DNA of 64,000 bases from a candidate division CPR3 bacterium 4484_211 (GCA_002084955.1 MZGJ01000006.1:2027-66026), one strand, 5' to 3'; counted from the stretch's first letter, positions 6,600-61,604 are shown. Notes: a model not told the origin generated them from the sequence alone. Numbers and translations: made by a program.

Positions 6600-6927
6600 G
6601 GGCTTGCCGCTTGAATACCGCGGGTTAGTTGCCGGGCGAAAAGGTGAGAAAGTATTAGTTCAAATAACCAAACCTTTCCCGTGTTTAAAATTTAGGAAAT
6701 TGTCGTTTGGGCATTGTTTGAAATTTGTTATGGTGGAACCTGCAAGAAAAATACATCCGCTTCCGGGGCGGGGGCGCTTCACGGTCAAATCTGGAAGTTA
6801 TATCCCGGCCGCATTCCGGTTGTGGTATTATTTATTCACCCGTGAATCTGAAAGCCGCCGCTTCCGGGGCGGCGGGGTTTCGCGGCTTAATTGGTTCGAC
6901 GGTGATTGCCGCCGACAGTTTTGTTAA
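6600..6927. repeat. composite intergenic repeat region (AT-rich ttgacatttggcattttt module plus leader module R at about 6739-6810 plus GC hairpins)
   Basis: Shares blocks with 16780-16860, 54440-54612, and (reverse complement) 21596-21668 and 33819-33878. Confidence 0.6.
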
Positions 6928-8702: not shown

Positions 8703-9770
8703 ATGCGTCTGGCAATTAATGGATTCGGCCGTATTGGCCGGACAGTCTTAAAGGTAATTCTTTCCCGGGGCGCTTGGGGAAGGGTGAGGGTCAGCTCCCG
8801 CATTAATCATGATCGGCTGGAGCTGGCGGCGATAAACAGCCGCAGTGGGCTAAATGAAACTGTCCCCTATCTTTTTAAATACGATACAGTTTATGGCTCA
8901 TATCCGGCCGAGGTGGGGATTTCTCCCGATGGCGGGTCTTTGCGTATTGACGGCCGGGATTATCTTTTTTTGGCCGAATCTGATCCCGGGAAGCTGCCCT
9001 GGAAAAATTTGGGAGTGGATGTGGTTTTGGAATGCACCGGGGCCTTTACGGAGTTTAACAAAGCTCAGGCTCACCTAAGGGCCGGTGCCAAGAAGGTAAT
9101 TATTTCAGCTAATGGCAAGGGGGAGGGTTTAACTTTGGTGCAGGGCACCAAGGCTTTTGAGAAATTTTTGTCCCAAAAAGATAACTATCGCGTGATCTCC
9201 AATGCTTCCTGTACCACTAACTGCGCTTCTCCGATAATACAGCTTTTGCATGACCATTTTCATGTGCTTAAAGCGCAGATGATCACCGTTCATGCGGTAA
9301 CTTCTACACAGAGTTTGGTTGATGACGCTAATAAAAATTTGCGCCGGTCGCGGGCGGCTTTTCAATCAATTATTCCTCAGCCAACGGGGGCGGCGGTGGC
9401 GGTAACTAGGGTTATTCCAGAGCTGGAGGGTCGAGTGAGCGGTTCGGCTTTTCGGGTGCCGGTAATTTGCGGCTCGGTCTTGGAAATTGTTGCCCAGATA
9501 GAAAAAGAAACCACGGCGGAAGAAGTTAATCAAGTTTTTAAAACAGCGGCCGCCGGCGAGCTTAAAGGAATTATCGCTGTCAGCGATGGCGGGCTGGTTT
9601 CGTCTGATGTTATCGGGTCGCCGGCATCGGCTACCGTAGACCTTCCCTTAACAGAAGTTTTGGATCTCCCCCATGTGGTTGACGAAAATCTTATTAAGGT
9701 GGTGGCCTGGTATGATAACGAGTACGGTTATGCTTGCCGGCTGGTGGAACTGGCTCAGGCGGTGTTATGA
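8703..9770 (+). CDS. gap: glyceraldehyde-3-phosphate dehydrogenase
   Basis: INGFGRIGR NAD site, SNASCTTNCASP catalytic Cys motif. Confidence 0.9.
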   Translation: MRLAINGFGRIGRTVLKVILSRGAWGRVRVSSRINHDRLELAAINSRSGLNETVPYLFKYDTVYGSYPAEVGISPDGGSLRIDGRDYLFLAESDPGKLPWKNLGVDVVLECTGAFTEFNKAQAHLRAGAKKVIISANGKGEGLTLVQGTKAFEKFLSQKDNYRVISNASCTTNCASPIIQLLHDHFHVLKAQMITVHAVTSTQSLVDDANKNLRRSRAAFQSIIPQPTGAAVAVTRVIPELEGRVSGSAFRVPVICGSVLEIVAQIEKETTAEEVNQVFKTAAAGELKGIIAVSDGGLVSSDVIGSPASATVDLPLTEVLDLPHVVDENLIKVVAWYDNEYGYACRLVELAQAVL

Positions 9771-14743: not shown

Positions 14744-15626
14744 GAAAAAAGTTCAAAATTACAATTCAAAATTCACAATTAGAAAAACACGGGAGGTGGC
14801 ACCCAAACATATTTTATCACTTAAGCAGGTTAAACCAAAGAAATCGTGGGGGCAGCATTTTTTGGTTAGCCAAGAGGTCCTGCGGGATCTGCTGGCGGCG
14901 GCCGAGCTTGAACCGCAGGATACGGTTTTAGAGATTGGTGCCGGCACCGGCGTTATCACCGTGGAATTGGCCAGACGAGTGAAAAGAGTGATCGCAGTGG
15001 AAAAAGATCCCAGACTAGCTGCTATTCTTAGAGAGGAACTGCATGCGCACAGCGTGGATAATGTACAGATTGTTAATCAAGACATTCTTAAATTGCAAAT
15101 GTCAGATAATAAATATCAAATTAATGCCGAATGTCAAACGACGGGTGTCCAAGTTAAATGTGATAAGATTCTTGGGGCTATTCCCTATCAGATTACCTCT
15201 CCGTTGATTCATAAGCTATTAAAAGAGCTGCCCCCCAACTTACTTATTGTTCTTGTCATCCAAAATGAGGTTGCGGAAAAAATTGCCGCCCAGCCGCCAG
15301 AAGCTACCTATTTAAGCAACTTCGTTTCCGCGCTGGCGAAGGTAAAGCTGGTGGGAGGACCGGTTGCCCCCTCATCCTTCCGTCCGCCGCCGAGGATAAA
15401 ATCAAGGATAATAAAACTGGTAACAAGAAATGAGGAACGAGTGAGGAGAGAGGAAATTCAGAGATTTGAGGACTTTTTGCATAAAGGATTTTCCCGTCCC
15501 AGGAAGATGTTGAAAAATGTCTTTGATGAGGGTCTGCTTAGGAAAGCGGGCATTGACCCCTCTTCTCGGCCCCAGGAACTGACATTGGAAGAATGGCTCC
15601 TGCTTAATAGGGGTGGTTCTTCTTAA
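14742..15626 (+). CDS. rsmA: 16S rRNA (adenine1518/1519-N6)-dimethyltransferase KsgA/RsmA
   Basis: KKSWGQHFLVSQEVL…VLEIGAGTGVITVEL…VIAVEKDPRL; contains an approximately 30-aa insertion. Confidence 0.8.
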   Translation: MKKVQNYNSKFTIRKTREVAPKHILSLKQVKPKKSWGQHFLVSQEVLRDLLAAAELEPQDTVLEIGAGTGVITVELARRVKRVIAVEKDPRLAAILREELHAHSVDNVQIVNQDILKLQMSDNKYQINAECQTTGVQVKCDKILGAIPYQITSPLIHKLLKELPPNLLIVLVIQNEVAEKIAAQPPEATYLSNFVSALAKVKLVGGPVAPSSFRPPPRIKSRIIKLVTRNEERVRREEIQRFEDFLHKGFSRPRKMLKNVFDEGLLRKAGIDPSSRPQELTLEEWLLLNRGGSS

Positions 15627-16332
15627 TTTTTTTCCTCTGCAGATGGTAGATAATAAATGAGAAGATAATGGTGGCCAGATAGCCGAGTAAGGTAATGAAA
15701 GTTAAATTGCGGGCGGCGATGGCTAATTTGCTGTTTAAGGCTTGATGGATAAAATAGAAATTGACCACGGCCCAGGGCAGAAAGGCGATGGTGTTAATAA
15801 GGAAATAGGTAGGGAATTTAAGACTGGTTAAACCCAGAGCGTAGGAAACATAATCGGTGGCCGCGCCTCCGATGAGCCGGATAATAAAGATGGTTTTTAT
15901 CCCGGCCAAATTGGTAAATTTGTCAATTTGCGCTAGTCCTTTTTGCCCCACGAATTTAGCTATCAGGGTGCGCCCCCAGTGTTTGGCAATTAAGAAATTT
16001 AGGGAATGACCAAGAAGATTAGCACTGTAGATACAGCCGAAGGCAACCGCCGAAGGAAAGATTAAGATCCCGGCGATCCAGAAGGGAAGGGCGGCAATTG
16101 GTGAAAAGACATTGGTGGAAGCGGTAAGCAGAATGTAAATGAGGGGGGCGGCAATTCCGAATTTTTGGACTAAATCTTTAATGCCTTCGACGGTAATATG
16201 CTGGCCAATGATTTTAAGGAGGAAAGTTAATCCAATGAGGAGGAATACGATTAGAAGAATCTTTAAGAAATTGGTGCTTTTTTGCGGAGAAAAGTGAATC
16301 ATACTCTTGTTTATTAAATATGGGCGGGTCAT
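15604..16332 (-). CDS. DedA/TVP38/TMEM64-family membrane protein
   Basis: Polytopic; IRLIGGAATDYVSYALGLTSLKFPTYFLINTIAFLPW resembles a SNARE-associated/DedA domain. Confidence 0.45.
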   Translation of the reverse strand: MTRPYLINKSMIHFSPQKSTNFLKILLIVFLLIGLTFLLKIIGQHITVEGIKDLVQKFGIAAPLIYILLTASTNVFSPIAALPFWIAGILIFPSAVAFGCIYSANLLGHSLNFLIAKHWGRTLIAKFVGQKGLAQIDKFTNLAGIKTIFIIRLIGGAATDYVSYALGLTSLKFPTYFLINTIAFLPWAVVNFYFIHQALNSKLAIAARNLTFITLLGYLATIIFSFIIYHLQRKKIKKNHPY

Positions 16333-16972
16333 AAATACTTCTAGTGGTTGCAGTAGCGCAATTTTGGATTCGCCGCCGAATTGCAGGTTTTGCTTATTGT
16401 GCGCACAGATTGCGGACTAACTGCAGTGCCATTCGGCACACGGTGAGAGTCCGCTATTGTAAGTAAGGTAAGCATTGCGTCCCAATCATATTAAATCATA
16501 AAAACATCAAATCATAAAATGTGAAATTCCACTGTCCCGGGAGCGGCGGTTTCTCCAAGCTGTTAGCCACGCCCTTGTTAATACAGCTTTCTGATTCCTG
16601 GGTAGAAAAACTTAAGACGCAAAGTTGCAACCGGAAGCTGAAGAAAATCTTTAGTTTTAATTCTGTAATTTTGGAAGTGAGGATAGGCCATAAGTGTCCA
16701 ACTCAGCCATAATGACAATAATCAAGCACCAAATTACAAACAAATTCAGAATTCAGAATCCAGAATTCAGAATTCAAATGACCAAAACCTTCCCATGTTT
16801 AGAATTTAGAAAATTGTCATTTGGATTTGGTTTGACATTGGGCATTTTTAATTTGATATTTTACGAATTCACTCCTTAGAGAGAGGCGGCTCCTAGCCCT
16901 GCTGCCTACCACATTACTACATTACTACATTACTACGCTGCTGCACTGCTACCATCCCCAAAAACTTTTAGT

Positions 16973-17068
16973 ATGATAGACTAGTCTATCATATATGTAC
17001 GTTTTGGCTTGTGTATAAGCAAGTCTTAAAAGCAAGGTTAGATTTAGTATGATAAACTAGTCTATCAT
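16973..17068. promoter_or_regulatory. pair of 20-bp palindromes ATGATAGACTAGTCTATCAT (16973-16992 perfect; 17049-17068 with 1 mismatch), 76 bp centre to centre
   Basis: Read directly; the spacer is shared (reverse complement) with the pair at 33974-34059. Confidence 0.6.
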
Positions 17069-17213
17069 CACTGAGATTGTTTTAATGGAGTTTGGTTTTA
17101 GCATTTTTAGCATGTTTTTCCTTTGGAGGATGGATTGCAAATATCCAACTTAATTGTAATAGCGCACTCTTGCCGTGTACCCTTGCGGCACTGCAGTTAG
17201 TGCGCGACTAGAA

Positions 17214-17244
17214 GGGGTGACACCCTCTTTGAGGGTGTCACCCC
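17214..17244. repeat. 31-nt perfect palindrome GGGGTGACACCCTCTTTGAGGGTGTCACCCC (module P)
   Basis: Other copies at 18424-18454, 34404-34433 and 50792-50822; degenerate half at 55714-55735. Confidence 0.7.
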
Positions 17245-17450
17245 ATTCAAATAATTATCACTGCGGCCGGTGTGTGCTCTGATCGCAGACTAACCGCAGT
17301 ACCATTCGGTGCATGGCAAGAGTTTGCTGTTACGGTTAAATTTTGAGATTATGTTCTGGCCGTTTTAAAAATAGGTGCCTGGTAATTGGAGTTTGCTGAG
17401 GTGAATGCTAAATCCTAAAAGTGTAAAACTTTTATGGTAGAATTCTTTAT

Positions 17451-18329
17451 ATGATTGACTTCATGCGTTACAAGTGGGTTTTTTTCTTGATTTCTGCGCT
17501 GGTGCTGGTCCCGGGGGTAATTTCTTTAGTTATCTGGAGATTAAATCCTTCGGTTGATTTTACCGGAGGGACGCTTTGGGAGGTAAAACTGGAAAAAGTT
17601 GCCTCCCTGCAGGAATTTAAGGGATATTTAGAACAAAAGCTGTCTGAAGAAGACATTACCTTGTCTTTGGTTCAGAAAACTGGGGAAAGAACCTTTTTGT
17701 TAAAGCTTTCCCCGTTGAGTGAAGATCAGAAGGAGACGGTTAAATTAGATATAAAGGAAGATTATGGAGATTTTAAGACTTTAAGGTTTGAAACCGTAGG
17801 GGCCTTAATGGGGAAAGAGCTTCTAATTAAAACTCTTATCGGGATTATTTTGGCCGCCGGGTTTATTCTTTTCTATGTGGCTTGGCGGTTTAAAAATAAA
17901 ATGTACGGAGTTTGCGCTATTTTGGCCATGTTCCACGATACACTTATTGTCTTGGGTATTTTTTCGCTGTTGGGGCATTTTTGGGGAGTGGAGGTGGATA
18001 TACTTTTTGTAACGGCGATTTTAACCGTACTTTCATTTTCTGTTCATGACACGGTGGTGGTTTATGACCGCATCCGTGAGTTGCGCAAGCTGTACCCAAA
18101 AGCGGACTTTACTTATCTGGTAAATCAGGCAATTTCTGAGACTTTGGTGCGGTCGTTGAATAATTCGTTAACTATTATCTTTATGCTTTTAGCTCTGCTT
18201 CTTTTAGGGGGAACGACCATCCGCTGGTTTGTGGTTGCCCTGCTTATTGGTACCATTGCCGGAACCTATTCTTCTACCTTTACCGCCGCCCCGCTTCTGG
18301 TTGTTTGGTATGAACGAACAAAAAAGTGA
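17451..18329 (+). CDS. secF: protein-export membrane protein SecF
   Basis: N-terminus …VDFTGGTLWEVKLEK matches the SecF IDFTGGT motif; six TM helices; 292 aa; no adjacent secD. Confidence 0.75.
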   Translation: MIDFMRYKWVFFLISALVLVPGVISLVIWRLNPSVDFTGGTLWEVKLEKVASLQEFKGYLEQKLSEEDITLSLVQKTGERTFLLKLSPLSEDQKETVKLDIKEDYGDFKTLRFETVGALMGKELLIKTLIGIILAAGFILFYVAWRFKNKMYGVCAILAMFHDTLIVLGIFSLLGHFWGVEVDILFVTAILTVLSFSVHDTVVVYDRIRELRKLYPKADFTYLVNQAISETLVRSLNNSLTIIFMLLALLLLGGTTIRWFVVALLIGTIAGTYSSTFTAAPLLVVWYERTKK

Positions 18330-18340
18330 AGCTTCACCAT

Positions 18341-18454
18341 TTAATTGTAATAGCAGATTCTTGCCGTGTACCGAATGGTACTGCGGTTAGTCTGCGGTCT
18401 GTGTGCGCAATAAGCATTTGAATGGGGTGACACCCTCAAAGAGGGTGTCACCCC
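18341..18454. repeat. module H (18341-18412) plus module P (18424-18454) immediately downstream of secF
   Basis: Sequence identity to the other copies; possible terminator role. Confidence 0.6.
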
Positions 18455-18518
18455 GTTTATTGCTACTGGGCTGGGCATTTATGACCCGTCTTTAATAACT
18501 GTGCGATTATAATTAGCT

Positions 18519-19589
18519 ATGTTGAAACCGACAAGTCCCAAGGGTCTGGAGCATAGAAGTAATAGCGAAGATGGTGAGCCTGTCGAGTTAATTAAGCTGA
18601 GTTCTGAAAAGATAAATCTGGCTCCGGCTGAGTTTCCAACCATTACGAAGATGGTTCTTGAGAATATTGAGGAGAACTATGAAACAGAAAAGGGCAGTGT
18701 GTTTAGGGATGTGTTTTTAAACAGAAATGTGGAAAAGCATCCAGAGGTTTATGTAGAGTTTTTGCGTCAGCGTTTAGCGGGCACTAGATACGAACGAATG
18801 ACGGAAGAAGAGAGAGAGGATGAAGTGTTTAATCTCTCGCCGGAATTTAAAAAAATAAAAGCAGAATTTTGTGATGCTTTTAGATGTGAATTGCCCGAAA
18901 CGCCAGAGAAGATTCAAAAGGCTGTGAACCAAGAAGCCAAAATAATTATCACCGGCGTGGTTAGGTTGCTTAACTTTTTTGTTGCAAACCATATTAACAC
19001 GGCTGTTTTTTTAGACAAGTCGGCTAGGTATGCGGCTCATCTCGTCAGGGTTTGCTGGAGAGAGCTCCATTTGTCCCGACAGATGCCAGTGATTACTTTT
19101 ATCAATGTGGGGGGCGAATCTCGTGACGAAAAACTTGAAGAAAACCAGGCGCTGGTATCACATCTTCGGAAAGGCCTATTAAGGCATATGCAGGGGGCTA
19201 GGGTGGCGGTTGTAGATGACTTCGAGTTTACGGGAGACTCTTTGAGGAGAGCGACAAACCTGCTTACTAATGCCTTTCCGGAAGCACAATCTATAAACCC
19301 AGTTTATGCTTTTGACGATGAGCCTTTTTGGTACGGCAAAACTTATGAAGTGGTGGATCCATATGGAGAGGATGCCATAGAAAGCGAGCGTGCTCACACT
19401 AAAATCTTTACCAGGTCCCCAGCGCTGTTGGTTAAGGATCAGCAATTTCTTGCAGAAGCAGATGATTTTATACTCCGGGTGTATAAAGAAGGACTGACAA
19501 AAATGCCTCGGGTGGCTGCTTTAAGAAAAGAGCTTACCAAACTCGCCCAAGTGATTGTAGAAAATACGCGTCTGCTTTCCCAACAGTAA
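18519..19589 (+). CDS. hypothetical protein with a PRTase-like segment
   Basis: VAVVDDFEFTGDSLRRA resembles the phosphoribosyltransferase PRPP motif; weak. Confidence 0.25.
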   Translation: MLKPTSPKGLEHRSNSEDGEPVELIKLSSEKINLAPAEFPTITKMVLENIEENYETEKGSVFRDVFLNRNVEKHPEVYVEFLRQRLAGTRYERMTEEEREDEVFNLSPEFKKIKAEFCDAFRCELPETPEKIQKAVNQEAKIIITGVVRLLNFFVANHINTAVFLDKSARYAAHLVRVCWRELHLSRQMPVITFINVGGESRDEKLEENQALVSHLRKGLLRHMQGARVAVVDDFEFTGDSLRRATNLLTNAFPEAQSINPVYAFDDEPFWYGKTYEVVDPYGEDAIESERAHTKIFTRSPALLVKDQQFLAEADDFILRVYKEGLTKMPRVAALRKELTKLAQVIVENTRLLSQQ

Positions 19590-19684
19590 GCAACTCTACA
19601 ACATTTCTTAGAATACCAAGCCTATCCCTTTTTCTCTAAGGACTATTCTTAGATGTGTTAGCAGGGCAGAAACGTTTATGTCGT

Positions 19685-20425
19685 CTAGGTAGCAAAAGGG
19701 ACCCTGATAGGAGAGGCAATTCGGGGAGTCCGCTGACGTCTGCCGCTGGGAGGTTTTTCCTGGTTTATTTCTTTTGCGAAAGCGCGGTAGCTAATCAAAC
19801 CTGATTTATGGGATGTAATATCGTCGCCAATCGCCTCCCTGATTAAAGTCAACACTTCGCGCACCCACTGGCTTAGTTTATCGCCGGAGATCCCTTGGAA
19901 CTGTATCTTATCATAGGTCATATCCACAAAAGGTTCTTTTGAACGTTTAAAGAGTAAATGGAAGGGAGATCGTTGGAAACTTTCTGGATCTAGTTTGCTT
20001 GGCCACTCTAGTCCCAGTGTTCCACTTTGATTAATTTCTGCAAAGTCAGCTTGTGTATCCGAAGCAGGGAATTTTTCTATTTTACCGAACTCGATAATCA
20101 TGCGGTGGCCGCCTTGCGGTTGATCGGGGTTTTCTCTAAAAAAGGTTAATTTTACTGGTCGGTTGCCTACTATGGCTACAAGTTCATATTTATTATAAAT
20201 AGAATCTTTGATTTGCCGTGCGGGGTCTTTATTTTCCAAATAGGCTGAACCGACATTGAAGATATGTTCTATTAGATAGCGTGCCTGGTTGCGCGCACTC
20301 GCACAGCGATTCCAGATATAATGTGCCTCTTTTTCTGTAAGCACACCTCTTTCGCTGGTGTGATCTGCAGTTAAGGGAGAAACCTCTGTTGATGTTTCGG
20401 CATTCGGCCGGCTTAACGCTGTCAT
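19685..20425 (-). CDS. hypothetical protein
   Basis: 246 aa, no motif. Confidence 0.25.
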   Translation of the reverse strand: MTALSRPNAETSTEVSPLTADHTSERGVLTEKEAHYIWNRCASARNQARYLIEHIFNVGSAYLENKDPARQIKDSIYNKYELVAIVGNRPVKLTFFRENPDQPQGGHRMIIEFGKIEKFPASDTQADFAEINQSGTLGLEWPSKLDPESFQRSPFHLLFKRSKEPFVDMTYDKIQFQGISGDKLSQWVREVLTLIREAIGDDITSHKSGLISYRAFAKEINQEKPPSGRRQRTPRIASPIRVPFAT

Positions 20426-21481: not shown

Positions 21482-21890
21482 TTCGTTGTCAACTTAAAAC
21501 AAAATGGTCTGTTTGTCTTTTTGTTTTAACACCGGCTTGGGCTACTTCTAAAGTTTGGGCTTAATTAGGGACAAACCTAATTTCTAGTCATTATGGTCGG
21601 GACATGGTTTCAAAATTTAACCGTGAAGCTCCTCCTGCTTGGAAGCGGATGTGTTTTTCCTGCAGGATCCCACTCCTTAAAGAGCGAAAACCCCGAACCG
21701 AAAGCCACTTATCTACGCTCCTGTCGGTGTGGCTCTCCGCTTCGCGGGTAATAGCAGACTTTAATCTGCTTCCCTGAATCGCAGACTGACCGCATCACCA
21801 CAAGGGTACCCGGCAAGAGTTCGCTGTTACAACCAAGTTGACCATTTATGACCCCTAATTTCTAGTTATTATATAACACCCGCAGGTCTT
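21482..21890. repeat. composite repeat region: leader module R (21596-21668, co-oriented with the minus-strand gene), module H (21770-21830 rc), direct repeat cctaatttctagt(c/t)attat at 21577 and 21855
   Basis: Read directly. Confidence 0.6.
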
Positions 21891-21908: not shown

Positions 21909-22949
21909 ATGCGGTTTGTTACCAACCTTGGTCGGTCTCAACTTGAGGGGAAAAAAGTTTTGGTTAGAGCAGACTTGGATGTGAAAATTAACCAGGGGTT
22001 GGTAGGGGATAATTTTAGACTGCGGGCAATTACGGAGACTCTCCAGTATCTGGTTGGGAACCATGCTAAATTGATTTTGGCGGGGCATCTGGATCGTCCG
22101 GGCGGTCGGGTTGTTGATTCGCTGCGCATGAGTCCGGTAGTTGACGAACTCCGTTCTCTGCTGGCGTCTGTGAGGGTAAAAAGTGTAGATCGAGTTTTGG
22201 GGCCAAGCGTTCTGGAAGAGGTAAAAAAACTTGAGGACGGGGAAATTTTAGTTTTGGAAAATGTCCGTTTTTGCCCCGGTGAGGAGAAAAACGAAGATCT
22301 GTTTGCGCAAAGGCTGTCATCATTGGCCGATTTGTTTGTTAATGAGTGTTTCGCAACCTGCCACCGTTGTCATGCTTCTATTGTGGGCGTGCCTCAATAC
22401 CTGCCTTCTTTTGCGGGAATACGGCTGGGGCGTGAAATTGAGACCTTGTTGCGTGTACGGGAAGCTCCTAAGCGCCCACTGATCTTTATTATCGGCGGGG
22501 CGAAGAAGGATAAGATTGAATTCGTTAAGGCCGTTTCTCAGTTTGCTGATCAAATTCTTTTGGGAGGAACTTTGATGTTTGCCCGGGAGTTGGAAGGTGT
22601 TCCCAAGGTTCTGTTTCCGGTGGATGCGGTGCGGGTTGATGACATTGGCCCTCGGTCGGTTTCGCTCTTTTGCAAAACTATCAAAGAAGCCGGGACAATT
22701 GTCTGGGCTGGGCCAATGGGAAGATTTGAACAAGATGAGTATATGATGGGTACGCGCAAAATTGCCCAATGTGCAGCAGAAAGCTGCGCCTTCAGCGTGG
22801 CGGGGGGAGGAGACACTTTGGCGGCTTTGGGTCAGGTGGGATTGCGGGATAAGTTTGATTTTTGTTCTACCGGCGGGGGGGCGATGTTAAAATTTCTGTC
22901 AAAGGGAACCTTGCCGGGGATTGAAGCTTTAGAAGTAAATCGTGAGTAA
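21909..22949 (+). CDS. pgk: phosphoglycerate kinase (short form)
   Basis: GKKVLVRADLDV…LAGHLDRPGG N-terminal domain, GGGDTLAA C-terminal motif; likely start at MRFVTNL. Confidence 0.85.
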   Translation: MRFVTNLGRSQLEGKKVLVRADLDVKINQGLVGDNFRLRAITETLQYLVGNHAKLILAGHLDRPGGRVVDSLRMSPVVDELRSLLASVRVKSVDRVLGPSVLEEVKKLEDGEILVLENVRFCPGEEKNEDLFAQRLSSLADLFVNECFATCHRCHASIVGVPQYLPSFAGIRLGREIETLLRVREAPKRPLIFIIGGAKKDKIEFVKAVSQFADQILLGGTLMFARELEGVPKVLFPVDAVRVDDIGPRSVSLFCKTIKEAGTIVWAGPMGRFEQDEYMMGTRKIAQCAAESCAFSVAGGGDTLAALGQVGLRDKFDFCSTGGGAMLKFLSKGTLPGIEALEVNRE

Positions 22950-23072
22950 CGGCGGATTTTAGTCCGCACTCAAAATTTTGTAATAGGCAAATCTTGCCAT
23001 TTGGTGACAGTTCTCTATTGTCGCGATAAATCTAAAAGCGCGCTGCTGCAGTTATACTTAATTTGCTTGAAT

Positions 23073-33757: not shown

Positions 33758-33818
33758 GGTGTCTATTCTATCATTCCTCCTTTGTGTATCGGTAATGTCA
33801 GATACTTCCAAGAATCAT

Positions 33819-33878
33819 GGGCGGGACATAATTTTAAGATTTAACTGTGAAGCTCTACCGCCTTGGAAGCGGATGTCA
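33819..33878 (-). promoter_or_regulatory. leader/promoter-associated repeat module R, co-oriented and about 60-120 nt upstream of the lepA start
   Basis: Shares …catccgcttcc[aagg]cgg…gcttcac[ag]gttaaat…ttatgtccc with the copies upstream of trxB, rmuC and the 20552-21481 gene. Confidence 0.45.
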
Positions 33879-33899
33879 CACCGTTTATGATTACAACCG

Positions 33900-34556
33900 G
33901 GTTGGACATTTACAATCCATCCTCTGAGGGGGAAAACATGCTGAAACCGAACTCTATTAAAATAATCTCAGTGATGATAAACTAGTTTATCATACTAACC
34001 CTGACATTGTTTTTAAGACTTGCTTATATACAAGCCAAAACGCGCATGTATGATAGACTAGTCTATCATACTAAGAGTTTTTTTTGGGGATGTAGCAGTG
34101 TAGTGACGTGGTAGTAGTAATGTGGCAGTAGGGTTAGGAGCCGCCTCTCTCCAAGGAGTGAATTCGTAAAATGGCAGATTTCAAATAAGGTCCAAATTAC
34201 AACTTTCCAAATTTTAAACACTGAAAATTTTTGATTATTTGAATTTTGGATTTGTTTGTAATTTGGCGCTTGGTTATTATCATCATAACTGGAACATGAT
34301 GCCATACTTTACTTGTAATATCAGATTCTTGCCGTGTACCGAATGGTACTGCGGTTTGTCCGCGTTCGGAGCGCACACTGAAGGCAGCAATAGTTATTTG
34401 AATGGGGTGACACCCTCTTTGAGGGTGTCACCCTTCTAAGCGCGTGCTGATTATGGTACCGCCAGAGTACACGGCAAGGGTGCACTATTACGAGCTGGAC
34501 AGCTAATGGCGGTAGACTTTTGGTTTTATTGAAAAAATGGTATTATCCAAAAAGAG
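33900..34556. repeat. composite repeat region (palindrome pair, tactac and AT-rich modules in reverse complement, module H at 34300-34372, module P at 34404-34433, module H rc at 34440-34500)
   Basis: Mosaic rearranged copy of the 16694-17345 region. Confidence 0.7.
33974..34059. promoter_or_regulatory. pair of 20-bp palindromes (33974-33993 ATGATAAACTAGTTTATCAT, still palindromic; 34040-34059 perfect consensus)
   Basis: Read directly. Confidence 0.6.
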
Positions 34557-49628: not shown

Positions 49629-50783
49629 TTATTCATATTCTTTAAAAATTTGTACGAGAGTTGTCTCAACGGCATGCCAGCTGTACTTTTCCACGCAAAC
49701 CTGTCGAGCCTTTTGGGCTCTCTTTTTAGCCTCCGCCGGGTGTCCTAAGACGTATTGAATTGTATCAGCCAGTTGTCGTGGATTCTCTGGCGGAATAAGC
49801 CACCCTGCATCTTTTATGATCTTAGGTATATTAGAGACTTTAGTAGAGACTATTGGTTTCTCCATTGCCATGGCGTCAAATAACTTTGCCGGTGTTTGGC
49901 CAGTGGTTGCTGTATTCTTTCGCTGAGGTACAACTACTATGTCAGCCATGGCTAAAATTTGGGGAAGTTTACAAAATTTTTGTATCCCTAATGCTATAAA
50001 TCTATTTCTCAATCTTTGTTTGGCTAATTTGAGAATTTTCTGTCCATAGCTGTTCTCGGAGCTTATACCTGCGATTACCAGGATCGTGTTTTTATTATCT
50101 ATAAGGCTCATTGCTTCTATTAAGTCTTCAATCCCTTTGTACGGTCTTGGATGCCCGCAGAACATAATGACTTGTTTTGTTTTGTCTATACCGTAGTGTC
50201 TTCTCGCCAGTACAGTGTCGATTTTTTGGGGAGAGAAGTAGTTGGTATCTCTGGCGTGCGGGATGATGATCCCCTTAAATTTGCGTTGCAGAAACGTATT
50301 AGATACCGTGATTTTGTCGGCAAGCTGTGTTAGTTGTTCAAAAAATAAAATGTTCCAGTAGGAAGTTGGTTTGTCAAATCTTAAAAGGGAGTATGCTAGA
50401 AAGGCAAGGCGTGTAGAGAGTGAAAAGCTTCTTGAATTTTCCTTGGCTAGGCCTAATTGCCAGTCATCAATATCAAGTATTAAGGGTTTTTTCTCTGTTA
50501 TCTTTTTAAGTAGGGCCAAACCGAAGCTTGTTAAAAGTGGCTTTGATGCATAAATAACTTTTCCGTCTATAGCCTTGAGAACTTTCCTAATTTTAAAGGT
50601 CTTGCCAAGAAACAAAGGTTTGTAATTGATACTGGTATCATTAGCAACGGGTTGCCAAATTCCCTTGCCAAACATTGGCCCCGCTACTTCCACTTCGTAC
50701 CGGCGCTTGAGTATTTTAGCAAGTAGATAGGCTCTGCCTAAACAGTTATGCGAAAGGTCGGGTGTGAGAATTGATATTTTCAT
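49629..50783 (-). CDS. glycosyltransferase family 4 (GT-B); start at MKISILT because the upstream ORF extension is encoded by repeat modules
   Basis: GT-B fold; C-terminal sugar-donor region …ATTGQTPAKLFDAMAMEKPIV. Confidence 0.65.
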   Translation of the reverse strand: MKISILTPDLSHNCLGRAYLLAKILKRRYEVEVAGPMFGKGIWQPVANDTSINYKPLFLGKTFKIRKVLKAIDGKVIYASKPLLTSFGLALLKKITEKKPLILDIDDWQLGLAKENSRSFSLSTRLAFLAYSLLRFDKPTSYWNILFFEQLTQLADKITVSNTFLQRKFKGIIIPHARDTNYFSPQKIDTVLARRHYGIDKTKQVIMFCGHPRPYKGIEDLIEAMSLIDNKNTILVIAGISSENSYGQKILKLAKQRLRNRFIALGIQKFCKLPQILAMADIVVVPQRKNTATTGQTPAKLFDAMAMEKPIVSTKVSNIPKIIKDAGWLIPPENPRQLADTIQYVLGHPAEAKKRAQKARQVCVEKYSWHAVETTLVQIFKEYE

Positions 50784-50791
50784 GAGTGAAA

Positions 50792-50895
50792 GGGGTGACA
50801 CCCTCTTTGAGGGTGTCACCCCATCTAAGCGTGCATCAACCGCGGTACCACAGGGGTACACGGCAAGAGTGCGCTATTACAATTAATTTGGACAT
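50792..50895. repeat. module P (50792-50822) plus module H rc (50826-50895) between divergent glycosylation genes
   Basis: Sequence identity to other copies; the palindrome lies 9 nt upstream of the GT4 start codon. Confidence 0.65.
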
Positions 50896-50934
50896 TTATA
50901 ACCCGCCTATAATTTTACTGTACTTTGCTACAAT

Positions 50935-52035
50935 ATGTCCATGCGTGCTACTTCCAAGAAGGTGTTTTTTATTTTAGCCCTTGCGTGGCTGCTGTTTTGT
51001 TGCTCTATCTATTTCATTGCCCGCCCTTTTTTTCTTGAGATAGTTCCTCTTTTGGTTCTCGTTTTAATTGTCTCTAGAGGAATTAAGCCAAAGTTTATCA
51101 TCAGTGTTCTACATTTAACTTTGGTTGGCTTATTTGGGGCGGTGTTTCTGTCTTTAATGTATGGAGTAATGGACAAGCAGTTGATGCACTTTGGTTTTAT
51201 CGCTTTTATTTCTGCAATATGTAAATCTTTGTCTGTTACGATTCTGGGAATAACTGTTATCACGGGCTTGGTTGCGGGACTTGGCAGTAAAGTCCTTTCT
51301 AAATTTTGTTTTAAATGCGAGTCTGGTTTAGGGCAGTTTTTGATCTCTATTGGGTTGGGGATCGGTATTGTGATTAATTTTGGCTTTTTTTTGGCTTACT
51401 TTAAAATTCTTAAACTTCCCGTGGTGATATTTCTTGTCGTTGGCCTATTTTACCTGTCTAGAAAAGAAATAGGGTCGTTTTTTAATAAAATAGCTAGGGC
51501 AAAAATTAGGGTAAAGGGAGATCTTCAGGTTGTTCTATTCTTCTCCGTTTTTATTCTCGTAATTTCACACCTTGTTACCAAGTTGAGAGGTTTCCCGTTG
51601 GAGTTTGATAGTCTGTCGCTGTATGCCAATACCGCCAAGAACCTGGCTTTAACCGGCAGGCTGCCCCAAGCCTGGTCTTTTCCTTTTGGGATTGAACTAT
51701 TTATGGGGTTTAATTGGCTTTTGTTTGGGGCGGGGACTGCCTTGACGATAAACAGTTTGCTTGGCTTGTTAAGTGTTTTGGCCATTTATCTAATTGCCAG
51801 GAAATTCGTTGGTTATAATTTTGCCTTGTTCCCGTCAATCTTTTTTTATACTACCTTTGCCGTGGCTCAGCTGACCTATTTTGACGACAAAGTTGACCTG
51901 GGAATTCTGTTCTTTGGGGTTCTGTCGGTTTATGCATTTCTGCAGTGGCATACTCTTCACCGCCGCAGGATATCCATCAAATTAGAACCGCGGTACTGTC
52001 TAACCGCGGGGAAAGGACGGATTTATGTGAAATAA
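50935..52035 (+). CDS. polytopic membrane protein, GT-C (ArnT/PMT)-like candidate
   Basis: About 11 TM helices; position in the glycosylation cluster. Confidence 0.35.
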   Translation: MSMRATSKKVFFILALAWLLFCCSIYFIARPFFLEIVPLLVLVLIVSRGIKPKFIISVLHLTLVGLFGAVFLSLMYGVMDKQLMHFGFIAFISAICKSLSVTILGITVITGLVAGLGSKVLSKFCFKCESGLGQFLISIGLGIGIVINFGFFLAYFKILKLPVVIFLVVGLFYLSRKEIGSFFNKIARAKIRVKGDLQVVLFFSVFILVISHLVTKLRGFPLEFDSLSLYANTAKNLALTGRLPQAWSFPFGIELFMGFNWLLFGAGTALTINSLLGLLSVLAIYLIARKFVGYNFALFPSIFFYTTFAVAQLTYFDDKVDLGILFFGVLSVYAFLQWHTLHRRRISIKLEPRYCLTAGKGRIYVK

Positions 52036-52937
52036 CTGAAGCGATGGCCCAATGTAAGAGAGAAATTAAATTGGGAGATTATGGGTATTACTTTTACCCC
52101 CAATCTTGGGCAGACCATTTTAAAAGGCCGCTGAGACTGCTCGCTTTAACTAACAAGTCAGCTTGCACGGGACGAGCGTCAATTGATCCCCTTTATGTTG
52201 GACTTTTCCCTCTGGTGATTGTCTTGGCGCTGGAAGAAAAGAGTAAAAGATTAAGACTTCTTTTGGTAATTATTGCAGGCTATTTTATTTTCTGGTATCT
52301 GGTCCGCTCACAGATTCTGTGGTACGCTCTTCCGGGATTTGCCTTATTATCGGTAGTTTTTTTTACGGCAATACGTAAAGTTGTTCCGGCCAAAATTAAA
52401 CGGGTGTTTCTAATAATTGCCAGCGTTAGTATTTTAATTCATAGTGCTTTCTATGTGGTTAATAATGGTACATACTTTTTTTTACCCGGCAATGCAGATT
52501 GGAAGCTCCAGGAAAAAAGATTTCTTCTTGGGGACTTAAAAAAGGCTTCAGCTTTTGTGAATAAAGTGCTGCAGGTTAATGAGGATAAAAAGGTTTTTTT
52601 GCTCGGGAATAAACCTGGTGCCCACTTTTTGCCTCCTTATTTTATAAACAATAGTCAGGAAGTGGCAATTTACTCTAATACCTGTCAGTTAATTTTCCTG
52701 CCGGAACAGCGGTCAGATATAGCCGGTTTAAGAGACAAGTTAAAAGCGCGGAATGTGGAATATGTTTTGGCCAGAATTTCTCCTGAGATAAAACTTGACC
52801 TGTTTAACATTCCACAGGAGGTCGGGGGGGTGACTCCCTGTATCTTAGAGACTAAAAAAAATATTGATTTTTTTCTGCGGAGTTACGGGCAGATAGTTTA
52901 CCAAAATTCTAATTATGCAGTGTATAGGATAAGGTGA
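51945..52937 (+). CDS. membrane/extracytoplasmic protein; possibly the frameshifted continuation of the preceding gene
   Basis: Overlaps 50935-52035 by 91 nt in another frame; TM helices then a soluble domain, as in GT-C enzymes. Confidence 0.25.
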   Translation: MAYSSPPQDIHQIRTAVLSNRGERTDLCEITEAMAQCKREIKLGDYGYYFYPQSWADHFKRPLRLLALTNKSACTGRASIDPLYVGLFPLVIVLALEEKSKRLRLLLVIIAGYFIFWYLVRSQILWYALPGFALLSVVFFTAIRKVVPAKIKRVFLIIASVSILIHSAFYVVNNGTYFFLPGNADWKLQEKRFLLGDLKKASAFVNKVLQVNEDKKVFLLGNKPGAHFLPPYFINNSQEVAIYSNTCQLIFLPEQRSDIAGLRDKLKARNVEYVLARISPEIKLDLFNIPQEVGGVTPCILETKKNIDFFLRSYGQIVYQNSNYAVYRIR

Positions 52938-54279: not shown

Positions 54280-54612
54280 TCCATTTAAGTGATTGTTGCT
54301 GTGATTATTGCGCGTGCAGATCGCAGACCAACCGCAGTACTATTCGGTGCATGGCAAGAGTCTGCTATTGCAAGTAAAGTGCAGTATTATGTCCCAGCTA
54401 TAATGGCAATAACCAAGCACCAAATTACAAACAAATTCAAAATTCAAATAACCAAAACTTTTGGACTGGGTTTGACATTTGGCATTTTTAACTTGCCGCT
54501 TTACGGCTATGCCCTTCTTCAAGAGCGCAGTCCTGCAAGAAAAATATATCCGCTTCCAAAGCGGTGGGTTTTTACAGTGGGTTTTTACAGTTAGATCTTG
54601 AAATTATGCCTC
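54280..54612. repeat. composite repeat: module H rc (54303-54375), AT-rich and ttgacatttggcattttta module, leader module R (54532-54612) with an internal tandem tgggtttttacag x2
   Basis: Matches 6600-6810 and 16700-16860. Confidence 0.65.
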
Positions 54613-54644
54613 AGCCATTTTTTAGAATCTATCAAAACTAAAAC

Positions 54645-56223: not shown

Positions 56224-56697
56224 CTAGTTTTTTTTCTCCAAATTTTTCTTAACTTCTCTTTTTCTTTTCAATTTAAGCAATTCACGTGCAGATTTTTCTA
56301 AAGCATATTTCGCGGCTAGAGAACCCAGCTTATGGGGGCCGGTAAATTGAGGTCCTTTTTGCATCTTCTTCTTTGCTTTCTGATCAATTTTAGAAATCTT
56401 CTCAACCACTTTCTCAAGACCACCTTCTCCATAATCCAAGATCTGTGCAACCCGGCCCACCGTCTGGTTGGTTACTTTTAACCGGTTGATAATTGTCCGG
56501 TAATCACAGCCCTCATAGAGCATTAAGGCTATCTGGAGCCGCTTGGCCAGCATGCGAATTTCCATCTTTGTAAAAAGGTCTTTTATAAAAGGCTCAAGTT
56601 CTTCACGATCTAGGCATAAATTAAAAGCATTGATTAAATTGTCAATGTAATATCGCATGAACTTATTTTCTACTTTGCGCGGTGAAAGCCTCGACAT
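56224..56697 (-). CDS. TrpR-like DNA-binding protein, YerC/YecD family
   Basis: LINAFNLCLDREELEPFIKDLFTKMEIRMLAKRLQIALMLYEGCDYRTIINRLKVTNQTVGRVAQILDYG matches the YerC/YecD TrpR-like pattern (helix-turn-helix near …TNQTVGRV…); basic C-terminal tail. Confidence 0.65.
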   Translation of the reverse strand: MSRLSPRKVENKFMRYYIDNLINAFNLCLDREELEPFIKDLFTKMEIRMLAKRLQIALMLYEGCDYRTIINRLKVTNQTVGRVAQILDYGEGGLEKVVEKISKIDQKAKKKMQKGPQFTGPHKLGSLAAKYALEKSARELLKLKRKREVKKNLEKKN

Positions 56698-57040: not shown

Positions 57041-57793
57041 CTATCTTGACACTTCATAAAGTTGTACCAGCGGTTCTTCCCAACCAAAACAGGTTTCTTT
57101 GCCCGCCAGCTTTTTAAATGTTTTGATGCATTTTGGTTCAAGCTGGGCAAACTTTTCCAAAATGTCCACTACTTCACTCATAAATCCGCCAACAGTTCCG
57201 TCAGAATCATCAATGCCGCCAGTTTGTAATTTTCTGTCCAAACGCAGGAGCAAATTAACCAATAATTTCGCTGTTTGTTGGCTTGCCGGAAGTTTTGAAA
57301 CAATTGAAGTTAAACGCCTGCATCCTTCGGAAAGCGAGTCTTGGTAGGCGAACCAAGTTCGGGATGGGCCCCGATACGGTTTTATGTACCTCATTGCTAA
57401 AGTAATGGATTTTTTGACGGCGGCTAGTTCTTCTGCGGTTAGTTCTCCCGTCTTGCCACTGCAAACCGGCCTGCCTATCAATTCTTTTTCCTCTTTTTTC
57501 AGTGGTTTGCCGTTTTTAACCGCGTAAATGGCCACGGCGACCATATGTTTGCAAAGAATATTTTTTTGGCCAAGATAGCACTCACAATGGCCATAATCGT
57601 AGCGCCGGGCCTCCACGAAAACTCGGTAAGGTTTGGTGCCGAGGACAACAGCCGAGTAGGATCTGATTCCTTCTTCAAATTGAGTTACTTTTCCGCTTTC
57701 ATACAGCCCAACAGCTCTTTTAAAAGTCGGCTCATCGGTGGCAAACTTGATTTTGTCAAGATCGTAATCCGGCGGTTGAATGTTCTTTGTCAT
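57041..57793 (-). CDS. SWIM zinc-finger protein
   Basis: GHCECYLGQKNILCKHMVAV is a canonical CxCx(n)CxH SWIM motif; ATGA overlap with the upstream nuclease gene. Confidence 0.55.
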   Translation of the reverse strand: MTKNIQPPDYDLDKIKFATDEPTFKRAVGLYESGKVTQFEEGIRSYSAVVLGTKPYRVFVEARRYDYGHCECYLGQKNILCKHMVAVAIYAVKNGKPLKKEEKELIGRPVCSGKTGELTAEELAAVKKSITLAMRYIKPYRGPSRTWFAYQDSLSEGCRRLTSIVSKLPASQQTAKLLVNLLLRLDRKLQTGGIDDSDGTVGGFMSEVVDILEKFAQLEPKCIKTFKKLAGKETCFGWEEPLVQLYEVSR

Positions 57794-58548
57794 TTTTCTT
57801 TCTGTTTAATTAGTTGCCTATATTTACAGAATTCACAATCAGGGCTTGGGGCGGGAATATCCTCGCTTTCAAGACATTTTTTAATTTTAATAATTGTTGG
57901 TTCCACCCAGGAATCGTCGCCTTCGTGGGATAAAATCATCAACTCAAACTCCAGGCGGCCGTCAAATTTTGGTCGGTTTCGACCGGCATTGGCAAAAACA
58001 AAGTAGCCGGTCTTGTTGACCTTAAAGCCTTTTTGCCTAAAGATCCACTGATAGATTTCCAATTGTTTTTTATATCCTTGTTTATATTCATCATCCAAAG
58101 AAATTTCTTGACTGGTACTGGTGGATTTATAATCAACAATCAGGAGTTCTCCTTTTTTATTTACCCAAACATCATCAATAATTCCGCAGATTTCTAAATT
58201 GGTTGGCCGGTGAAGCGTTGAAGCGCCTTTGAAACGATAATGGTCATCCCGCCACTCAGGCAGGTCCGGATGATTAAAAGGAATTGCGTCTATTCCGTAT
58301 TGGTTCATCAATTCGTGCTTTTCTCCATTTTGCCGTAGAAGATCAAACTCGTTTTTTAAAAGTTGATCCACGGCGGAGTTTAGGGCGAATCCCGGCATGC
58401 TCGGCCGCCCCAAACCCAGTCTTCGATCTAAATAAAAACACCGCGGACATTCCAAGAATAGATCAATCTTAGAGCGACTAAGCTTAAACGGCTGCTTGGA
58501 GTTGGGATTATATCGAGATTTTTCTTTTCTCTGCTGGTATTTGTTCAT
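57790..58548 (-). CDS. Cas4/RecB-like PD-(D/E)xK nuclease with a predicted [4Fe-4S] cysteine cluster
   Basis: N-terminal …LSRSKIDLFLECPRCFYL (Cas4-type S.S…CPR motif); IDDVWV…ELLIVDYKST (D, E, K catalytic triad); C-terminal C-x12-C-x2-C (KKCLES…PDCEFCKY). Confidence 0.55.
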   Translation of the reverse strand: MNKYQQRKEKSRYNPNSKQPFKLSRSKIDLFLECPRCFYLDRRLGLGRPSMPGFALNSAVDQLLKNEFDLLRQNGEKHELMNQYGIDAIPFNHPDLPEWRDDHYRFKGASTLHRPTNLEICGIIDDVWVNKKGELLIVDYKSTSTSQEISLDDEYKQGYKKQLEIYQWIFRQKGFKVNKTGYFVFANAGRNRPKFDGRLEFELMILSHEGDDSWVEPTIIKIKKCLESEDIPAPSPDCEFCKYRQLIKQKEK

Positions 58549-58699
58549 TTCTTTATTTTACCACCCGCCTTCCAAAAACACAGCGCTATCTATAATCCCG
58601 AGACGCAGTGGAGATTTTACCTTAAGTGAAAATTTTACCTTAAAGGTACGAAGATTGACAAAATTAACAATTACGATAATATAGTATTAAAGCGTGTCC

Positions 58700-59039
58700 C
58701 AGGTCTGGGCGCCCGCTCTTTTTTATTATCAAATCTTCCTCAATAAATTCTTGTCAATTATTTTTATCAACTCTTTATTAGCGTTAGTAGCATTAGGGAC
58801 GGGGACAAAAATGATTGATAAATCAATAAAAAAGATTGGTATTTTTTAAATAATCTTAAACAACAAAGTTTAAAAACCAATAAAATAATTAAAAATAATA
58901 AGTAATAAAGGTAATAAGTAAAAAATCATAAAGAAATAAAAAATAGGCCAAAAATAAACTGATATATCAGTATTTTCTAGCCCCGTCCCTGAGTCCATCT
59001 TGATTTTTGAAAAATGTGCTTGTCGATAGCGACAATAAA
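58700..59039. other. AT-rich low-complexity boundary segment at the edge of the AT-rich island, with 10-bp GC inverted repeats AGGGACGGGG (58795-58804) and CCCCGTCCCT (58981-58990)
   Basis: Compositional break read by eye; simple AATAAGTAATAAAGGTAATAAGTAAAAAA repeats. Confidence 0.4.
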
Positions 59040-61601: not shown

Positions 61602-61604
61602 AAT

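Follow-up and report, generated by a model that had tools for sequence, protein, structure and literature searches.

Repetitive extragenic palindromes (REPs) carrying a GTAG tag, which have been surveyed in eight phyla, are characterized by an unpaired tag on one side of a 6-13 bp stem, by alternative complementary residues and G-T pairs within the stem, and by loops that either read TY/CMA or are long enough to be self-complementary (Di Nocera et al. 2013, PMC3733652). Such a unit is a palindrome of 20-40 bp, its tag is GTAG or a GYAG/GTRG variant, and it is expected to be numerous in the genome and to flank a cognate RAYT (Y1 HUH) gene. In their dimers the tags lie outside and the spacers of 20-100 bp contain small stem-loops; furthermore, the tags supply stop codons, many REPs are thought to act as RNA, and classical REPs favour convergent and co-directional spacers (PMC3733652). 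The DNA described here is a 64,000-nt stretch (GCA_002084955.1, MZGJ01000006.1:2027-66026), called the window hereafter, of the chromosome of the candidate division CPR3 bacterium 4484_211 from the Guaymas Basin, and it is 99.9-100% identical to other assemblies of the same organism; its SecF is 100% identical to that of the 4484_211 record. Its intergenic spacers contain a family of short hairpins, each preceded by an unpaired leader, and we consider with moderate confidence that they hold a family of the GTAG-tagged type resembling REPs, REP doublets forming hairpins (REPINs) and bacterial interspersed mosaic elements (BIMEs), interleaved with regulator sites and block duplications. Elements of this kind are already known; for this lineage (CPR3/Patescibacteria) no report was found, and full-text literature searches gave no description of REPs or of miniature inverted-repeat transposable elements (MITEs) in Patescibacteria.

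The basic unit consists of the unpaired leader TTGTA(A/G)TAG followed by a 7-bp stem, GCNNAYT/ARTNNGC. The loop ranges from 2 to 64 nt: it is 2-3 nt in the "mini" units, which are 22-25 nt long, or it contains an inner hairpin (CTTGCCGTGTACC-GAAT-GGTACTGCGGTT) as an optional insert, or longer inserts including a palindrome, P. Full units, called H units, are 55 nt long because of their complex loop. The constant part is therefore the leader plus the 7-bp stem, as related contigs contain minis with a 2-3 nt loop and one copy with a 64-nt loop. The original prediction, a reading of the window alone, had listed nine copies of a 65-nt module H, and all nine are at the positions and on the strands given there: an nhmmer profile finds exactly these in the window, at E 1e-14 to 3e-23 and with no further match under E 0.4, and a covariance-model (CM) scan of the window with filters off returns the same nine at 53-81 bits, the next match reaching 16.7 bits. 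The 65-nt module, however, had to be redefined, since the unit is the leader with the outer stem, the "tail" seen in the first H subtype corresponds to the stem of the unit's inverted partner, and tail and P belong to such a partner or to a spacer. The window holds nine full units and four further ones (16350, 18404, 21748 and 22946), and a tenth full unit lies 7 kb beyond its right end; a count over the whole stretch gives 14 units in 64 kb and one in the next 7.6 kb. The coordinates are collected in Table 1.

The outer stem is kept by compensatory change. The three outer stems quoted in the original prediction are right (GCGCACT/AGTGCGC, 17162-17205; GCAGATT/AGTCTGC, 18353-18395; GCGGACT/AGTCCGC, 16412-16460 on the minus strand), and the covariation claimed for them is stronger than could be seen there. 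When 26 units were aligned with the loops swapped for AAAA so that the units align, and pairing was counted without correction for relatedness, 90.7% of the outer stem was paired where shuffles gave 79.0 +/- 1.7, covariation scored 0.397 against 0.188 in shuffles (reached in 0 of 500), and three of the seven pairs (pairs 3, 4 and 6, each with three or four pair types) had changed on both sides. Because some minis in this set came from methods that reward pairing, a pairing-blind search using only the leader and the 5' stem was run on the window and related contigs. Among the 18 bona fide units that it gave, likewise counted without correction for relatedness, 13 have all seven pairs, three have six, one has five and one has no partner. 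Seven stems are fully paired in this search (GCGCACT, GCAGACT, GCGCAAT, GCGAACT, GCAGATT, GCAGAAT and GCGAAAT) and an eighth, GCGGACT (16412), lies outside its pattern; complementarity is thus kept over eight stem sequences in about four genomes.

Covariation was also claimed for the inner stem, which in fact hardly covaries and is mismatched in several copies. GTGCC/GGCAC is indeed paired in the 16408 copy, but the GTACC of the 17154 copy stands opposite GGCAC, a mismatch, and copies 17281 and 54319 have inner-stem mismatches as well. One inner pair has changed on both sides in two or three copies, and covarying pairs are no more numerous than in shuffles. Likewise, in the 12 full copies first collected, 87.7% of the cells were paired against 84.8% in shuffles and only three of 17 pairs showed change on both sides, not above shuffles; a model-fitted alignment of 21 matches agrees, its inner stem showing either almost no variation or plain mismatches.

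The units mostly occur as inverted pairs, with the leaders outside in all nine dimers seen and with spacers of 9-13 nt, or of about 78 nt containing P. The palindrome P (arms of 14 nt, centre of 3 nt) is present four times, lying either in a dimer spacer (17214, 34404) or in the loop of a partner unit (18424). It begins with GGGGTGAC, which is compatible with GGGGWSAS, the motif of the inverted repeats flanking Y1 (TIRYT) transposase genes (PMC3733652); this possible correspondence is a lead, not a test. A full dimer folds into one long hairpin (-51.8 kcal/mol, z -7.1), and such folding back of an entire dimer, together with its variable internal content, would also suit classical MITEs, in which a DDE transposase would act on terminal inverted repeats formed by the end motif and the leader and would carry the hairpins along as passenger sequence. 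The motif GGGTCATAAATG-N9-10-TTGTAATAG and its inverse do flank several dimers, and the end motif CATTTATGACCC is present where it had been reported (16322 on the minus strand, 18476, 21843 and, with one mismatch, 50893). However, the end motif is absent or degraded at many ends, isolated 22-nt minis do not have it, no convincing target-site duplications are visible at the repeat ends, whose flanks are AT-rich, no transposase was found in the sequences examined, and compensated stems are not expected of passenger sequence. An origin as classical MITEs appears very unlikely.

Two other observations concern the end motif. As a promoter it was ruled out, its ATGACC being at no constant distance from a -10 box. 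An accessory repeat with the hairpin CCGCTTCC/GGAAGCGG, found in four spacers, has a 5' part similar to the end motif (GGGCGGGACATAAT).

The same unit family occurs in the metagenome-assembled genomes (MAGs) JAHISN (L004 and L014) and JAHJGY (L018) and in the related loci L019 and L003. JAHISN, a member of the Patescibacteria, has the same hairpin and, in addition, 22-nt versions with a 2-3 nt loop and one copy with a 64-nt loop, and its inner hairpin is almost identical to that of the window genome; the sister strain L005, JAHJGY and L019 have the same unit pattern. One exact-pattern scan of species genomes and one of metagenomes matched only L003-L007, a scan of viral sequences gave nothing, and comparison of translated repeat frames with wrongly called proteins gave two matches, the new one being P0122 on a 72-kb contig. 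Moreover, contigs of other assemblies end within the repeats, which suggests many genomic copies.

As the original prediction had stated, the 33.9-34.5 kb region is a rearranged mosaic of the 16.7-17.35 kb region: 16704-17160 is the reverse complement of 33890-34291 (74%, 460 nt) and 17156-17356 that of 34292-34491 (78%), and, as each of the two blocks is reverse-complemented, they were inverted independently. The predicted tandem repeats are also present, an 8-mer repeated three times at 16912-16935 and an adjoining 7-mer tandem repeat. Larger blocks, made up of units together with accessory repeats, recur in different spacers as duplicated and inverted copies. Such blocks, 200-460 nt at 74-78% and common to 16.7-17.4, 33.9-34.5 and 54.3-54.5 kb, clustered substitutions that suggest gene conversion, and the absence of gain or loss between strains are what one would see if there were no element, only segmental duplicates of a single ancestral spacer that have decayed and that recombination between inverted copies has shuffled. 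However, units with the same leader and stem are also found in other genomes, where their contexts are unrelated and minis are among them, the stem has eight compensated versions, and the geometry is identical in nine of nine dimers, so that this explanation is already disfavoured and must be called most improbable.

Between the window genome and strains at 97-98% identity, 2-5.5% of the spacer sites are changed, compared with about 0.4% in the flanking genes, and the changes consist of clustered substitutions, a 4-nt inversion and shifts in tandem-copy number. The 7-mer, 8-mer and 13-mer tandem repeats each vary by a single copy (16761-16767, 16947-16954 and 54564-54576), and four bases within an H unit (17311-17314) are inverted (GCAT to ATGC). 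The sister strain L005 (2733-3718) diverges from the window just beyond the VTT-domain gene (past window position 15630); its new segment contains a perfect TTGACA-N17-TATAAT promoter and two small Cys-rich open reading frames (ORFs), with mini hairpin units after each.

Compared with the GTAG-tagged REPs (PMC3733652), the units described here likewise have an unpaired tag ending in TAG beside a 7-bp stem, sub-families that differ by alternative complementary residues in the stem, G-T pairs, loops that are 2-3 nt (TT, TC, TCA) or long and self-complementary, and dimers with tags outside and structured spacers; they too are extragenic and gain stop codons from the tag. The 55-nt full H units with their complex loop are like the GTAG-3/14 families (PMC3733652). 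Differences from the GTAG-tagged REPs are a longer leader, with about 9 conserved nt, and a host from the CPR/Patescibacteria (CPR, candidate phyla radiation), outside the eight phyla of that survey. The BIMEs of Escherichia coli, mosaics built from Y and Z palindromic units and extra motifs, are similar in being heterodimers of two unit types with different loop lengths and alternating orientation, and in combining units and other short motifs in mosaics that vary between sites; there is no sequence similarity, however, and regulator sites and tandem repeats are also part of the mosaics here. The ends of the IS200/IS605 insertion sequences (ISs), whose subterminal hairpins TnpA reads as single-stranded DNA, also combine a sequence-variable hairpin with an adjacent short single-stranded guide or tag, but here no tnpA or tnpB is nearby and the units are far shorter than an IS.

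The original prediction had left the choice between an RNA and a REP-like DNA hairpin, of which the latter is the best fit. The active form would be a single-stranded hairpin with a specific 5' tag, because complementarity, and not sequence, is kept. A tag plus a hairpin would correspond to the recognition logic of Y1 HUH enzymes (RAYT, and TnpA of IS200/IS605), and such an enzyme, encoded elsewhere in the genome, may copy or maintain the units. In place, the units would be transcribed with their neighbours, and some may be retained as mRNA-end or leader hairpins. Several observations weigh against the REP-like assignment. No Y1/RAYT or other transposase is found among the genes of the window, of the extra 7.6 kb and of the related loci, and no unit has been gained or lost between the window genome and the 97-98% identical strains. 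The tag next to the stem is ATAG or ACAG in the window genome (leader GTAATAG or GTAACAG), not GTAG, which occurs only in relatives (GTAGTAG directly before the stem), and most units here lie in divergent spacers, unlike classical REPs. In addition, unit positions around pgk are common to two genomes whose PGK proteins have only 56% identity, for which retained function is a better fit than selfish spread: in the window genome and in L014 alike, a mini unit is on or just after the pgk stop codon (22946-22967 here, 3187-3208 in L014) and a dimer with leaders outside lies upstream of the gene, at about 50-60 nt here and about 50 nt in L014.

These pgk positions, common to so distant a genome, hint at an RNA-level role for some units. 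They also support an explanation in which the units are primarily functional cis RNA hairpins at mRNA ends and leaders, read by a lineage-specific protein or RNase and serving 3'-end protection, termination or processing, so that their repetition reflects selection at many genes and not mobility. Such an explanation and the REP-like one are not mutually exclusive. The frequent G-U pairs in the stems (G19-U44 is G-U in 15 of 16 copies), the tandem stop codons of the leader (TAA TAG), which contains the pgk stop, the near-identical inner hairpin in the two genomes, and the view that REPs in many cases work as RNA (PMC3733652) all agree with it. On the other hand, both orientations occur at each site, and there is no preferred transcribed strand because the folding energies of 12 copies sum to similar values on the two strands (-213.6 and -204.2 kcal/mol). 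Stems are broken in about half of the window copies, five of nine of which fold poorly, the spacers diverge between strains 5-10 times faster than the flanking genes, and the downstream genes are functionally unrelated. The spacer between the VTT-domain gene and secF, 1118 nt here, has syntenic counterparts in L012 (285 nt) and L019 (59 nt), and neither contains units. Nor is there an Rfam match: Rfam 15 at gathering score gave only tmRNA and two tRNAs in the window, and at E up to 10 only miRNA-type hairpin noise in 16300-18520. A primary RNA function, the main rival to the REP-like assignment, is possible, if rather unlikely.

A further proposal, which we regard as unlikely, is that the tagged hairpins are a Patescibacteria-specific RNA or single-stranded-DNA signal, not moved by a known RAYT, which would have been kept at pgk ends since before the divergence to 56% PGK identity and whose loop would dock nested insertions such as the inner hairpin and P. 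If this were true, they would be a host-recruited modular hairpin scaffold with a dedicated binding protein. A riboswitch or leader function was rejected because the units stand in both orientations and precede unrelated genes. Group II intron domain 5, the hammerhead and the integron attC site were dropped by eye, as their core motifs are absent, and Rfam agrees for the two RNA cases.

The VTT-secF spacer of L012 (SecF 67% identical; 9068-9353) contains a repeat of its own, 63 nt in three tandem copies, with the palindromes GATAGCCGTTAGGCTATAC and TCTGACGCGGAGCGTCAGG. Repeats in spacers may be widespread in this group, their sequences differing from lineage to lineage.

Table 1. Repeat units, accessory repeats and regulator sites in the window (positions counted from its first nucleotide).
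Feature	Position	Strand	Description	Found by
REP-like unit	16350-16402	+	leader GCAGTAG; stem GCGCAAT/ATTGTGC; 33-nt loop; leaders-outside dimer partner of 16408 unit	weak CM match 16348-16406, E 0.064
H unit	16408-16462	-	stem GCGGACT/AGTCCGC; inner hairpin GTGCC/GGCAC	profile, CM
H unit	17154-17209	+	stem GCGCACT/AGTGCGC; 5-nt-loop subtype	profile, CM, pairing-blind search
H unit	17281-17335	-	stem GCAAACT/AGTCTGC, 6/7 paired; GCAGACT in sister strain, 7/7	
H unit	18345-18399	+	immediately 3' of secF stop codon; stem GCAGATT/AGTCTGC, one G-U pair	
Inverted partner unit	18404-18471	-	stem GCAATAAGC/GTTTATTGC; P (18424-18454) inside loop	
Mini unit	21748-21769	+	GCAGACT TT AATCTGC; leaders-outside dimer with 21777-21832, upstream of pgk	
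H unit, degraded	21777-21832	-	GCGAACT/AGTCTGC	CM
Mini unit	22946-22967	+	GCGGATT TT AGTCCGC; overlaps pgk stop codon	
H unit	34313-34367	+	degraded outer stem	CM
H unit	34438-34493	-	5-nt-loop subtype; 3' stem not complementary	CM
H unit	50827-50882	-	5-nt-loop subtype; no proper 3' stem	CM
H unit	54319-54373	-	GCAGACT/GGTCTGC	CM
Palindrome P	17214-17244		spacer of 17154/17281 dimer; begins GGGGTGAC	
Palindrome P	34404-34434		spacer of 34313/34438 dimer	
Palindrome P	50792-50822			
End motif CATTTATGACCC	16322-16333	-	outside leader	
End motif, other copies	18471-18487, 21838-21854, 33902-33918, 50888-50904	+		
End motif, other copy	16685-16701	-		
Accessory blocks	16704-16883	+	AT-rich with 7-mer tandem repeat, then TTGACA-containing block	
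Accessory AT-rich/TTGACA blocks	54395-54525 (+), 34124-34291 (-)		further copies	
Accessory repeat	21590-21652	+	hairpin CCGCTTCC/GGAAGCGG; also 33814-33876 (+), 6735-6810 (-), 54546-54616 (-)	
Q pair	16973-17068		sites 16973/17049, 76 nt apart	
Other Q sites	1834, 33974/34050, 45089, 53634/53709, 55918/55993, 56718/56793			
YerC/YecD (HisR-like, TrpR-family) regulator gene	56224-56697	-	Q pairs on both sides; candidate Q binder	TIGR02531, 50.9 bits

The 20-bp palindromes, which had been counted among the members of the hairpin mosaic, are present as predicted and yet do not belong to that family, as they behave like probable TrpR-family operators. This palindrome, Q (ATGATAGACTAGTCTATCAT), has 12 copies in the window, five times as pairs 75-76 nt apart, and contains an ACTAGT core, which is known from the E. 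coli trp operator. The only close homologue of the YerC-like protein encoded in the window is in JAHISN (L014, 68% identity), where the same 32-nt palindrome is located 17 nt before the start codon (1349), 247 nt further upstream (1102) and right after the stop codon (1890); Q is thus 17-21 nt upstream of a YerC/YecD-family gene in two genomes. In Bacillus, YerC is known as HisR; palindromes of 20 bp serve as operators of HisR and TrpR, and autoregulation is found for about half of the hisR genes (PMC9413887). Because Q flanks a YerC-family gene in two genomes and has the length and symmetry of such operators, Q palindromes are probably, judging from sequence, operators of the YerC/HisR-like regulator of the window and a layer separate from the hairpin units. 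Like those operators, Q measures 20 bp, is palindromic and precedes the gene of its presumed regulator; unlike them, its consensus differs from both published motifs (PMC9413887), and its sites are paired at a distance of 75-76 nt and precede housekeeping genes instead of his or trp genes. One Q site is 33 nt upstream of a Zn/Mn-type ABC transporter gene (45141).

The gene content of the window is housekeeping (secF, pgk, tpiA, lepA, proS, serS, rmuC and tmRNA). Its longest spacers are 1118, 1202, 745, 611, 559 and 409 nt, mostly between divergent genes, which bears out the intergenic lengths of 0.4-1.2 kb given earlier, and spacers of at least 100 nt sum to 8.1 kb. The repeat spacers were ruled out as coding sequence, since indels between copies are not multiples of three and gene callers predict nothing there. 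The longest-ORF starts of the glycosyltransferase gene (49629-50861, minus strand) and the VTT-domain gene (15604-16332, minus strand) extend into repeat units; the former has an in-frame ATG at 50783, just outside P, and orthologues of the latter are 11-19 residues shorter than the longest ORF in the window, so that the true starts of both genes are probably downstream of the repeats.

Two other regions of the stretch deserve mention. The part from 57041 to 64000, together with 1-10000 of L023, another assembly of the same organism with 100% identity, is a low-GC island (29-35% GC) with genes for a SWIM-finger protein, a PD-(D/E)XK nuclease, a KAP NTPase and an Eco57I/MmeI-like restriction-modification enzyme (1149 aa) and, beyond the window, NYN and SNF2/PLD helicase genes, and thereby has the appearance of a defence island. 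Furthermore, L023 has 220 extra nt (19652-19871) at window position 51950/51951, which give a single 738-aa PMT_2 glycosyltransferase gene where the window has two overlapping ORFs (50935-52035 and 51945-52937), and the split in the window is either a deletion or an assembly error.

The genomes of CPR/Patescibacteria are regarded as small and streamlined. In this one, about one eighth of a 64-kb stretch is spacer, much of it consisting of what are probably REP/BIME-like repeats, which also break metagenomic assemblies. The leader plus the 7-bp stem is a simple search key for a census of these elements, for the hunt for their putative enzyme and for masking or bridging in MAG assembly. In addition, the Q sites form a testable predicted regulon for the YerC/HisR-like regulator in an organism about whose regulation hardly anything is known.

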